From assembly GCA_963663165.1 (NCBI GenBank), contig OY760175.1:4448001-4512000 (forward strand): a stretch of DNA of 64,000 nt, read 5' to 3'. A program made the translations under genes and the position numbers. The notes beneath the pieces were generated by a model. It was given only the letters and a program-made list of their open reading frames with translations, did no database searches and was not told where the DNA came from. The DNA is from an uncultured Desulfospira sp. (lineage in GTDB: Bacteria > Desulfobacterota > Desulfobacteria > Desulfobacterales > Desulfobacteraceae). Shown here piece by piece: positions 10,032 through 43,376 of the stretch. The stretch's first letter is position 1; each line of letters opens with the position of its first letter.

Positions 10032-10113
10032 AAGAATCCTCCAAATACTTCCCTGGTGTCGGGAAAATTATTCAACAGGACCTTATTCCAGCGGCAATCC
10101 TTTGGCGCTTTTT

Positions 10114-10376
10114 TGTCCGGGCAGGCTTTCCGGCTTGCGGATCACTCTAATTGCTGCACCTTCCCCTGAATTGAGCTATTAGCTTTTAGCCGTTAGCCAT
10201 TAGCTTTCGGCTAACGGCTAATGGTTTATAGCTAACAGCTTTTTCACAGAGTGGCATATTGCAGGTTTCGTCCCCGCTTACGGCAACGGCTGGTATGCAA
10301 CGGATTTTCACCGTTTTTCCTTTTACCCCGGATCCCGCTTTCAGTTAAAAAGCCGGGAAACCCAGGCACCCTGACA
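10114..10376 (-). ncRNA. Cobalamin (B12) riboswitch
   Basis: Minus strand: AGGGTGCC...TAAAAGGAAAAACGGTGAAAATCCGTTGC...GCCGTAA...GCCACT...GGGAAGG...AAGCCGGAAAGCCTGCC; P1 TGTCAGGG/CCCGGACA; upstream of the cobT-containing operon. Confidence 0.9.
10174..10240. repeat. Family A heptamer hairpin inside the riboswitch
   Basis: agctattagcttttagccgttagccattagc-tttcg-gctaacggctaatggtttatagctaacagct, near-perfect inverted repeat of GCTAAYR units. Confidence 0.85.
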
Positions 10377-10385
10377 GTGACGTAA

Positions 10386-10415
10386 ATTATAAGGATTACA
10401 AGGGGGTTTTGTCAA
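10386..10415 (-). promoter_or_regulatory. Sigma70 promoter for the riboswitch operon
   Basis: Minus strand TTGACA-N18-TATAAT, both hexamers perfect, ending about 10 nt before the riboswitch 5' end. Confidence 0.8.
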
Positions 10416-42344: not shown

Positions 42345-42607
42345 GGGCGTGTATCCTTTCTTTGTCCATATTGTTCAATGATACATTAATGTGTGAACCA
42401 TAACAGAAAAACTGCTTTTACGTAATAGCACAATTATTGTCAATAACAATGAAAAGGAAGGCGGTTGATTTTTTTATACCGTTAAAAAATTTGCATTTAT
42501 GTAATTTTTTTAAAGACTGAAGGCTGCTGGCCCGGATATGTCACGACCTGTTGTTGTCTCAGGGACAGGGCCATTTTGACAGACAGTGCCTGGGCAAACA
42601 CACCCAT

Positions 42608-42725
42608 AAAAAAGGCCGGAAAGGAGGAGCGTCCTTTCCGGCCTGTGGCCCTGCGGAGGGAACTTAAAGGAGGGGTGCGGCAGCGTTGGGAGGAGGAGGG
42701 CCGCTGCCGCGGGTGTAACGCAAGC
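42608..42725 (-). ncRNA. Candidate 3'-UTR sRNA with CCUCC-rich stem-loops ending in an intrinsic terminator
   Basis: Minus strand GCGGCAGCG-GCCCTCCTCCTCCCAA-CGCTGCCGC, linker ACCCCTCCTT..CCCTCC, terminator AGGCCGGAAAGGA-CGCTCC-TCCTTTCCGGCCT-TTTTT. Confidence 0.55.
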
Positions 42726-42733
42726 AGGAACCT

Positions 42734-42934
42734 TTAGCCTACTTTAAGATGGATATTATGGGATGCCAGGGTCGAGGTGACGGCCTGGTTCATTTGGGCA
42801 GGCGTCAGGTTTGACCGGTATTTCCCGCCAATCTCATTGATCTCAATTCCATCTATATTTTTCCGGGTCAGTTTAAGCAGTACGCTGAGCCCGAATGTTT
42901 TTTTAACTTCAAATAATTCTTTGGTGCTGTCCAT
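42734..42934 (-). CDS. Small hypothetical protein (66 aa)
   Basis: AAGGA RBS, own sigma54 promoter upstream and terminator downstream. Confidence 0.8.
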   Translation of the reverse strand: MDSTKELFEVKKTFGLSVLLKLTRKNIDGIEINEIGGKYRSNLTPAQMNQAVTSTLASHNIHLKVG

Positions 42935-42980
42935 TTTATATATGTCCTTAAATTGCGTGTTAAACTATGAAAATTTATAA

Positions 42981-42997
42981 TGCAAACCGTGTGCCAA
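42981..42997 (-). promoter_or_regulatory. Sigma54 (RpoN) -24/-12 promoter
   Basis: Minus strand TTGGCACACGGTTTGCA, matching TGGCAC-N5-TTGC. Confidence 0.85.
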
Positions 42998-43376
42998 ATT
43001 TTTCAAACTGGACAAAAAATTTTAAAAGCCTTGGGGGTAAACGGATTTCAAGGGGTAAAAACGCAATGCCCGGGGGGTGATATTGAAATGGCAGAAAATA
43101 AATAACATTTTTGTTTTTATCTGGCCGGGGGGTATGGCGGGAAGCGAAGGCGCTGTTTTAATGTTTTCAATATGTTGGCATAAAATACAAGGCCTGGTTT
43201 TCCGCCGGGTAATTTTATGCAAAAAATACAGAATATGTTGCGTTTACCACAGATTTACTGTTATGGTGGCCTTTATTGAAACCGTGGACCCACCGGGATT
43301 TTTTTCAAGGTATTGAAGCCCTGGACGGCCATTGGTTTTATTCATGTTCTTTCAATTTAACCCACAGGAGAGATCA

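Follow-up and report, generated by a model that had tools for sequence, protein, structure and literature searches.

On the minus strand at positions 42608 to 42997 of the window (by which we mean the whole 64-kb stretch of uncultured Desulfospira DNA analysed here), we found a compact unit made of a consensus sigma-54 (-24/-12) promoter, a gene for a protein of 66 amino acids (aa) and a 3' untranslated region (3' UTR) unusually rich in CCUCC. The messenger RNA (mRNA) of this unit may well be bifunctional, with a small protein encoded upstream and a 3' UTR acting as an anti-Shine-Dalgarno (anti-SD) riboregulator; we hold this reading with about as much belief as doubt. If it is right, sigma-54 RNA polymerase, switched on by an enhancer-binding protein, would transcribe an mRNA of about 360 nucleotides (nt) that encodes the 66-aa Desulfobacteraceae-specific protein. 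Its last 125 nt or so, consisting of a hairpin (SL1), a linker and a terminator, would expose several copies of the ribosomal anti-SD sequence CCUCC. The tail would work while still part of the full-length mRNA, or after RNase E has cut it free as a 3' fragment of about 120 nt. In both forms it would base-pair with GGAGG-type ribosome-binding sites on other mRNAs and reduce their translation, without the help of Hfq.

Anatomy of the unit and its CCUCC-rich tail

The first-pass annotation, made from the sequence alone, had placed here a promoter, an open reading frame (ORF) for 66 aa, a hairpin, a linker and a terminator; all five were confirmed in strand and position (Table 1). The promoter, TGGCAC-ACGGT-TTGCA (42996..42981), matched the consensus without a mismatch. 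A zero-mismatch TGGCACN5TTGCW site occurred once in the window, at this promoter, and 25 times in the 6.74-Mb genome; the GG at -24, the GC at -12 and an rpoN gene in the genome, which together define a sigma-54 promoter, are all present. The stem described as nine base pairs (bp) of GC has eight G-C pairs, and its 16-nt loop contains CCUCCUCCUCCC. The two linker motifs that had been claimed were found in 42676..42645 as CCCCUCCUUU and CCCUCC, while the CUCC seen earlier in the terminator loop is part of a CUCCUCC running across the loop and the 3' arm of the 13-bp terminator. The transcription start of the unit is a predicted position.

Table 1. Features of the unit and of its upstream region (window coordinates)
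Feature	Coordinates	Strand	Basis or remark
Sigma-54 (-24/-12) promoter, TGGCAC-N5-TTGCA	42981..42996	-	consensus match; rpoN in genome
5' UTR, weak Shine-Dalgarno AAGGA at 42949-42945	42935..42969	-	sequence reading
66-aa ORF, Desulfobacteraceae-restricted small-protein family	42734..42934	-	
Stop-to-SL1 spacer AGGUUCCUGCUUGCGUUACACCC, 23 nt	42711..42733	-	possible RNase E entry site
SL1, candidate anti-SD display: 9-bp GC stem, 16-nt loop GCCCUCCUCCUCCCAA, 34 nt	42677..42710	-	
Linker, 32 nt, C-rich, mostly unpaired, CCCCUCCUUU and CCCUCC	42645..42676	-	
Intrinsic terminator, 13-bp stem, 6-nt loop, U6 (hairpin 42644..42613)	42607..42644	-	
Candidate enhancer (upstream activating sequence)	43169..43240	.	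repeat search; about 180-240 nt upstream of the -24/-12 element

Consensus scans detected no promoter-like site within or after the ORF, and the lone terminator-like site at the element was that of the minus strand (42644-42613). By these consensus scans only, the tail uses its parent mRNA's terminator and lacks a separate promoter, as 3'-UTR-derived small RNAs (sRNAs) do. The 141-nt 3' region folded with an energy of -58.5 kcal/mol (z = -3.66), and none of 200 shuffles was as stable. Both hairpins persisted in the fold of the whole 366-nt mRNA, where the SL1 loop and the linker were unpaired and the ribosome-binding site was free. The 16S rRNA of this genome ends in GGAUCACCUCCUUUC; the linker's CCCCUCCUUU resembles the 16S 3' tail CACCUCCUUU, with CACCCCUCCUUU as the mimic in the linker.

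The octamer CCTCCTCC was not enriched in the window, with four matches compared to 3.2 expected and 40 of 100 shuffles reaching four. The pentamers, on the other hand, formed the densest CCUCC cluster of the 6.74-Mb genome (six in 126 nt, compared to 0.084 expected). No other locus of the genome had at least five CCUCC per 126 nt, and five loci reached four. The 12-nt core of the SL1 loop occurred once in the genome, the hairpin arms were single-copy, and a BLAST search of the unit against its own genome matched the unit itself only. A scan of metagenomes with a loop-plus-linker pattern produced 11 stretches, all of them rejected as low-complexity C/T-rich DNA without the hairpin.

The main rival to the riboregulator reading is that we are looking at an ordinary structured 3' end, in which the hairpins stabilise and terminate the mRNA and the wealth of CCUCC arose incidentally through slippage of CCU repeats in a young insertion, with no role in trans. 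We regard it as rather unlikely, though as the most serious of the alternatives. The status of the six CCUCC as a unique outlier in the genome argues against it, as does their placement in four separate places (the SL1 loop, two linker sites and the terminator), which goes beyond one slippage event.

We read the unit as a minus-strand one because that is the strand of its perfect -24/-12 element, of its ORF and of its U-tract terminator. The first-pass annotation had itself offered an alternative, namely that a plus-strand RNA with GGA or GGAGG loops serves as a decoy titrating CsrA. The plus strand does carry GGAGGAGGAGGG in the same hairpin loop and further GGA motifs, and the genome encodes one CsrA. 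However, on the plus strand neither hairpin is followed by a U-tract and nothing promoter-like was found upstream, while the family-conserved sigma-54 promoter, the ORF and the sole terminator-like site are read from the minus strand. Moreover, sRNAs titrating CsrA or RsmA (the CsrB/RsmZ type) have GGA loops on the transcribed strand, and the minus-strand loops have no GGA. The decoy is thus highly improbable.

Comparison with cuckoo RNAs and with the amtB 3'-UTR RNA

The tail had been likened to the cuckoo RNAs of Alphaproteobacteria. A cuckoo hairpin is 24-50 nt long, with a loop of 9-27 nt carrying CCUCCUCCC (Reinkensmeier and Giegerich 2015; PMC4615179), and SL1, with its 34 nt and its 16-nt loop, agrees with this definition in size and loop. 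Cuckoo RNAs consist of two to four adjacent hairpins with the motif in each loop (PMC4615179); here the terminator loop has 6 nt and offers only CUCCUCC, half of it inside the stem. They are described from Rhizobiales and Rhodobacteraceae, usually in several copies per genome (PMC4615179), whereas the relatives of the present unit are Desulfospira and Desulfobacter and its genome has one locus. Finally, in the CIN1 (ccaF1-type) subgroup of cuckoo loci the adjacent ORF has a DUF1127 domain (PMC4615179, PMC8034643), and the 66-aa protein has none; it matched no Pfam family at E <= 10.

At the ccaF1-CcsR1-4 locus of Rhodobacter sphaeroides, a small-protein gene is followed by 3' UTR hairpins with CCUCCUCCC anti-SD loops that are processed by RNase E, each CcsR RNA comprising two such hairpins (PMC8034643, PMC4615179). 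The window's unit resembles it in that a gene for a small protein (66 aa, compared to 71 aa in R. sphaeroides) is under an alternative sigma factor and in that the 3' UTR forms hairpins, with CCUCCUCCC displayed in an anti-SD loop, ahead of a terminator. It differs in having one full module, compared to four sRNAs of two hairpins each, in the use of sigma-54 instead of RpoHI/II, in a protein that is not of the DUF1127 type, and in a genome where no Hfq gene was found. Besides, the host is one of the Desulfobacteraceae and not an alphaproteobacterium, and processing and RNA binding are conjectured here by analogy. The 5' end of the Rfam CcsR1 model, GUUUCuugcu, aligned to GGUUCCUGCU in the stop-to-SL1 spacer, and the RNase E site of CcsR1 is GUUUCC (PMC8034643); RNase E cleavage within 42711..42733 is therefore possible.

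The ar14 RNA NfeR1 of Sinorhizobium meliloti also displays CCUCCUCCC in its hairpins and terminator; it is Hfq-independent, occludes the ntrB ribosome-binding site (PMC10746234) and is wired to nitrogen control. Unlike NfeR1, a free-standing gene with its own NtrC-repressed promoter, the RNA considered here is the tail of a sigma-54 mRNA, and it is single-copy per genome where ar14 has several copies. The tail resembles RNase E-released 3'-UTR sRNAs, such as SorX of R. sphaeroides (PMC8034643), in sharing the terminator of the parent and in showing no detected internal promoter; in contrast to them, its seed is a generic anti-SD motif and not a gene-specific one, and the tail is known from sequence alone.

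Rfam ar14 (RF02344) aligned end to end with 42716-42608, the terminator loop included, at 31.9 bits (E 0.0016), and the tail was the better of two ar14 matches in the whole genome (E 1e-3 per genome). CcsR1 (RF02791) aligned over the whole length of its model with 42732-42672 at 24.7 bits, the best of 14 weak matches in the genome. At E <= 0.01, ar14 matched none of 14 control genomes. Both scores are well below the gathering cut-offs (58.8 bits for ar14 and 65.3 for CcsR1). The proposal of a cuckoo-analogous unit therefore stands as regards the anatomical parallel with ccaF1-CcsR and the genome-best matches to both models, and it is weakened by the sub-gathering scores, by a protein outside DUF1127 and by a module seen elsewhere in the sister species only. 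Given such scores, one full-motif hairpin, a single copy, no DUF1127 and a non-alphaproteobacterial host, the likeness is one of design and not of family membership, and it is best explained by convergence, not homology. The first-pass annotation was unaware of any such unit described in Desulfobacterota; the listings and abstract openings returned by our literature searches contained no description of one, and no CCUCC or anti-SD sRNA of sulfate reducers or Desulfobacterota.

A sub-threshold ar14 scan of 151 Desulfobacteraceae genomes gave matches in nine, namely the window's genome (G000), the sister genome (G001) and 7 of 25 Desulfobacter. The Desulfobacter matches represent one conserved RNA of about 150-250 nt directly 3' of the gene for the 440-aa ammonium transporter AmtB (loci L076, L077, L079-L083 and L089-L105, about positions 1501-1760 of each). 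Its hairpins show the loop CCUCCUUAC and, in a GC-rich terminator, CCCUCCC or a similar loop; another CCUCC lies at the 5' side. These amtB tails scored 27.5-36.4 bits with ar14, a level similar to that of the window's tail, and reached no Rfam family cut-off. A covariance model built from seven copies (threshold E <= 0.001) matched 26 of the 151 genomes, of which 21 were Desulfobacter (out of 25), four came from the 41 of another genus and one was D. joergensenii. An anti-SD-type hairpin loop was present in 16 of 17 strong matches compared to one of nine weak ones; the latter owe their scores to the terminator and the last part of the amtB reading frame. The amtB-tail RNA is probably a nitrogen-linked anti-SD sRNA.

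Like the window's tail, the amtB-tail RNA is found in this bacterial family, in the 3' UTR of a gene, with CCUCC-loop hairpins and, in the window's genome, a sigma-54 promoter (TGGCACCTGTTTTGCT, upstream of the glnK-amtB operon). Unlike the window's tail, it lies at another locus, follows another gene and is conserved across a genus (21 of 25). We count its CCUCC hairpins as a precedent for an anti-SD role of the window's tail; such a second well-conserved CCUCC-loop RNA in the same family also argues against an ordinary 3' end. The amtB tail of the window's own genome (L085:1289-1518; contig 1, about 842,980-843,190, minus strand) is diverged, with a pyrimidine-rich UUUUUCCUCC and the loops CUCUCC and CCUCUCCUUU, and scored 19.8 bits with the amtB-tail model. 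Paralogy between it and the window's tail was considered and rejected: the arms look alike by eye, but 49 of 1000 shuffles and 63 of 2000 random genome windows gave a local alignment score at least as high.

In the wider phylum, ar14 at E <= 0.01 matched 4 of 151 genomes, the window's genome counted. The only other phylum locus with a strong CCCUCCUCCC-loop hairpin was L125 (genome G296, another genus; contig 136, positions 86-193), where the hairpin CCUGCCGCC[CUCCUCCC]GGCGGGCAGG directly follows a separate terminator; it is possibly a further CCUCC-loop RNA. A second ar14 match in the sister genome (L084, 3880048-3880152) was a false positive in a CRISPR-like array, formed by a CCCCCUCCCACGGGGG repeat hairpin.

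The protein family and the origin of the tail

Homologues of the 66-aa protein were found in 7 of 61 related genomes, the window's own included, and at 42 loci of one-genome-per-species contigs, which belong to Desulfospira, Desulfobacter, Desulfobacula or other Desulfobacteraceae/Desulfobacterales. Every one of the 293 protein clusters of the family is named 'hypothetical', and eight family members searched against NCBIfam gave no family besides two chance-level rows. The alignment of 42 family sequences has 15 invariant columns. Between the window and the sister species, 8 of 201 nucleotides of the ORF changed with a single amino-acid change (98% protein identity). To judge from these sequences, the family is clearly coding. 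A -24/-12-like element was present upstream in 29 of the 42 homologous loci; therefore, sigma-54 control is an old trait of the family. One of three small-protein paralogues in Desulfospira joergensenii (L008; contig 2, 742580-742756) has two in-frame stops (TGA, TAA) and no in-frame ATG, and is probably a pseudogene.

The CCUCC tail does not share this distribution. Among the 42 loci compared, two of which have no downstream sequence, the module was observed downstream of one homologue (L023), that of the sister Desulfospira species, with six CCUCC as in the window. A single CCUCC within 220 nt downstream was present at seven other loci, and the three D. joergensenii paralogues were without the module. 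In the Desulfobacter orthologues (73-80% identical) we see the same layout of stop codon, hairpin, linker and terminator with other content and no CCUCC loops; the first hairpin there is UUUGCCGGG...CCCGGCAAA. The terminator arms CCGGAAAGG...CUUUCCGG are common to the window and the Desulfobacter orthologues, and the Desulfobacter loops are without CUCC. Since layout and terminator arms are shared and CCUCC is not, the two-hairpin 3' UTR is ancestral, and a single Desulfospira sublineage acquired SL1 and the CCUCC motifs. The CCUCC tail is thus a young, lineage-specific element, a recent gain on an older two-hairpin 3' UTR.

Within that sublineage, the tail is well conserved. All 34 positions of SL1 are the same in the sister species, and the terminator hairpin is unchanged. 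The linker is identical at 29 of 32 positions, the stop-to-SL1 spacer at 19 of 23, and the 5' UTR except for three upstream positions; past the U-tract, the DNA of the two genomes is not alignable. For comparison, third codon positions of four flanking genes were identical at 321 of 369, 59 of 66, 164 of 188 and 116 of 124 sites, or 660 of 747 (88%). At this third-codon rate, the probability of no change across the 66 hairpin positions is about 3e-4 by our own arithmetic. All six CCUCC pentamers are retained despite the three linker changes around them, a further argument against an ordinary 3' end. DNA contigs of four public runs contained only the window form and the sister form (changes at 42644, 42645, 42650 and 42668).

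The tail could also act in cis. It would then be bound by a protein (possibly the 66-aa protein, or Rho) or pair with the gene's own ribosome-binding site, and so set the stability or translation of its own mRNA. A model for this is CcaF1, which binds and shapes its own ccaF1-CcsR precursor (PMC8034643). The 66-aa protein is slightly basic, and AlphaFold predicts for it, with confidence (pLDDT 84), a small alpha/beta domain; the linker has many C and few G residues, and by eye about 9 bp of it can be paired with the gene's own AAUUUAAGG. However, the whole-mRNA fold did not contain that long-range pairing and left the ribosome-binding site and the loops free, while chance alone should give about 0.4 matches of 9 bp when G-U pairs are allowed (our own estimate). 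No RNA-binding fold was recognised for the protein, either by Foldseek against PDB, with no match at E <= 0.001 and weak KH, ACT-like and ferredoxin-like entries as its top rows, or by a wide VIA-align search (best Z 4.7). The 40 other family members do without a CCUCC tail, and the intrinsic terminator makes Rho unnecessary. We consider a purely cis-acting element improbable.

Targets, counter-evidence and genomic neighbourhood

The genome has one copy of rpoN and two of RNase E/G. We count this machinery in favour of the riboregulator reading, which goes from an observed anatomy, strand, genomic uniqueness and conservation to an inferred transcription, processing, pairing and set of targets. 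Pfam searches found no Hfq in the genome, which is 96.7% complete; we count this against the riboregulator reading but see no obstacle in it, because NfeR1 is described as Hfq-independent (PMC10746234).

Target prediction, which the first-pass annotation had proposed as a check, did not favour it. A ranking that took in every possible start codon was headed mostly by spurious starts and G-runs. When candidates were ranked by duplex energy over 5459 crude gene starts, the real loop was not separated from shuffled C-rich loops: its 1st-percentile energy was -22.7 kcal/mol, compared to -19.7 to -21.4 for the shuffled ones. The top candidates centred on ribosome-binding sites had no theme (flagellin, a ParD-like protein, a pyridoxal phosphate (PLP) enzyme and others); one of them, a fragment of RNase J, probably reflects a start inside the gene. 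The neighbouring gene speA ranked 5048 of 5459.

Together with the Hfq and target results, several other observations weigh against a riboregulatory tail, the sub-gathering Rfam scores among them. Absence of conserved CCUCC loops downstream of orthologues was one of two outcomes that the first-pass annotation had said would together contradict its proposal, and among the 42 loci such loops were seen in the sister species only. Since the module is confined to species with a 98%-identical protein, it offers no covariation and little evolutionary depth. For the 22 loop nucleotides alone, our own arithmetic puts the chance of zero changes at about 0.07, short of significance, and terminator stems are conserved in any case. 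The (CCU)n sequence looks like a slippage-prone microsatellite. An expanded run, CCUCCUCCUCCUCCUCCU, was observed at the 5' side of the amtB tail in one Desulfobacter genome (L105, genome G132), and CCU repeats therefore expand and contract in amtB tails.

Several of these points speak directly for the ordinary 3' end: the module in two sibling species only, the non-discriminating target prediction, the non-significant conservation of the loops taken alone and the expanded CCU run of a Desulfobacter amtB tail. So does the Desulfobacter layout, which is the same without CCUCC loops and hence shows an architecture independent of the motif.

The first-pass annotation had put the unit between polyamine-related genes, and we found an arginine decarboxylase operon on one side and a cluster with a spermine-synthase domain on the other. 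Downstream, a minus-strand operon encodes arginine decarboxylase (speA) and proteins of the saccharopine-dehydrogenase, Orn/DAP/Arg-decarboxylase and arginase (agmatinase type) families; upstream, a plus-strand cluster encodes TelA, DUF4178, DUF350 and spermine-synthase-domain proteins. The speA gene is downstream in the sister species as well, and the Desulfobacter orthologues adjoin a different, crcB-like gene; therefore, the polyamine link is not conserved.

The candidate enhancer consists of a 12-nt inverted repeat, TTGGCATAAAAT / ATTTTATGCAAA (43175-43186 / 43212-43223; 25 nt apart), flanked by two copies of AATATGTTG. The stretch 43169-43240 is almost identical in the sister species, and from its position we infer a candidate activator site of the divergent promoter region. 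The Sigma54_activat domain had 57 matches in the genome, none of them inside the window. Strict short-motif regular expressions applied to 71 sigma-54-like sites revealed no shared upstream motif. By eye, the window's genome and the loci L023-L031, L033 and L034 share an A/T-rich motif centred on ACAAAAATGT(A/T)A, some 100-130 nt upstream of the -24 element; words like it were also seen, by eye only, upstream of glnK-amtB in the window's genome.

A near-palindromic TTACAT(A/T)AATG(T/C)A was observed at 42492-42504 of the window (plus strand TGCATTTATGTAA) and downstream of the Desulfobacter orthologues L006, L007 and L024-L030. It follows the small-protein unit in both genera despite the different next gene (speA or crcB-like), and may be an operator or promoter element. 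Elsewhere in the window, a cobalamin riboswitch (RF00174, 71.2 bits) lies at 10103-10388 on the minus strand; it represents the sole Rfam family above gathering in the window.

A broader proposal is quite doubtful. According to it, Desulfobacteraceae would have independently evolved Hfq-independent anti-SD riboregulators in the 3' UTRs of sigma-54 genes (the amtB tail and the present one), coupling nitrogen or polyamine status to a global damping of strong-SD mRNAs, with the 66-aa protein as a dedicated RNA partner analogous but unrelated to CcaF1.

The regulatory RNAs of sulfate-reducing Desulfobacterota have hardly been explored. An inactive tail would be a useful warning: clusters of cuckoo-like motifs can come about as by-products. 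An active one would exemplify convergence, the 'small protein gene plus anti-SD RNA tail' of Alphaproteobacteria having appeared a second time, here driven by sigma-54 and without Hfq. We would moreover be seeing it at a very young stage, with the motif gained on an older two-hairpin 3' UTR and an sRNA being born from a terminator region. The tail and the Desulfobacter amtB-tail RNA are two concrete, easily testable entry points into riboregulation in this group.

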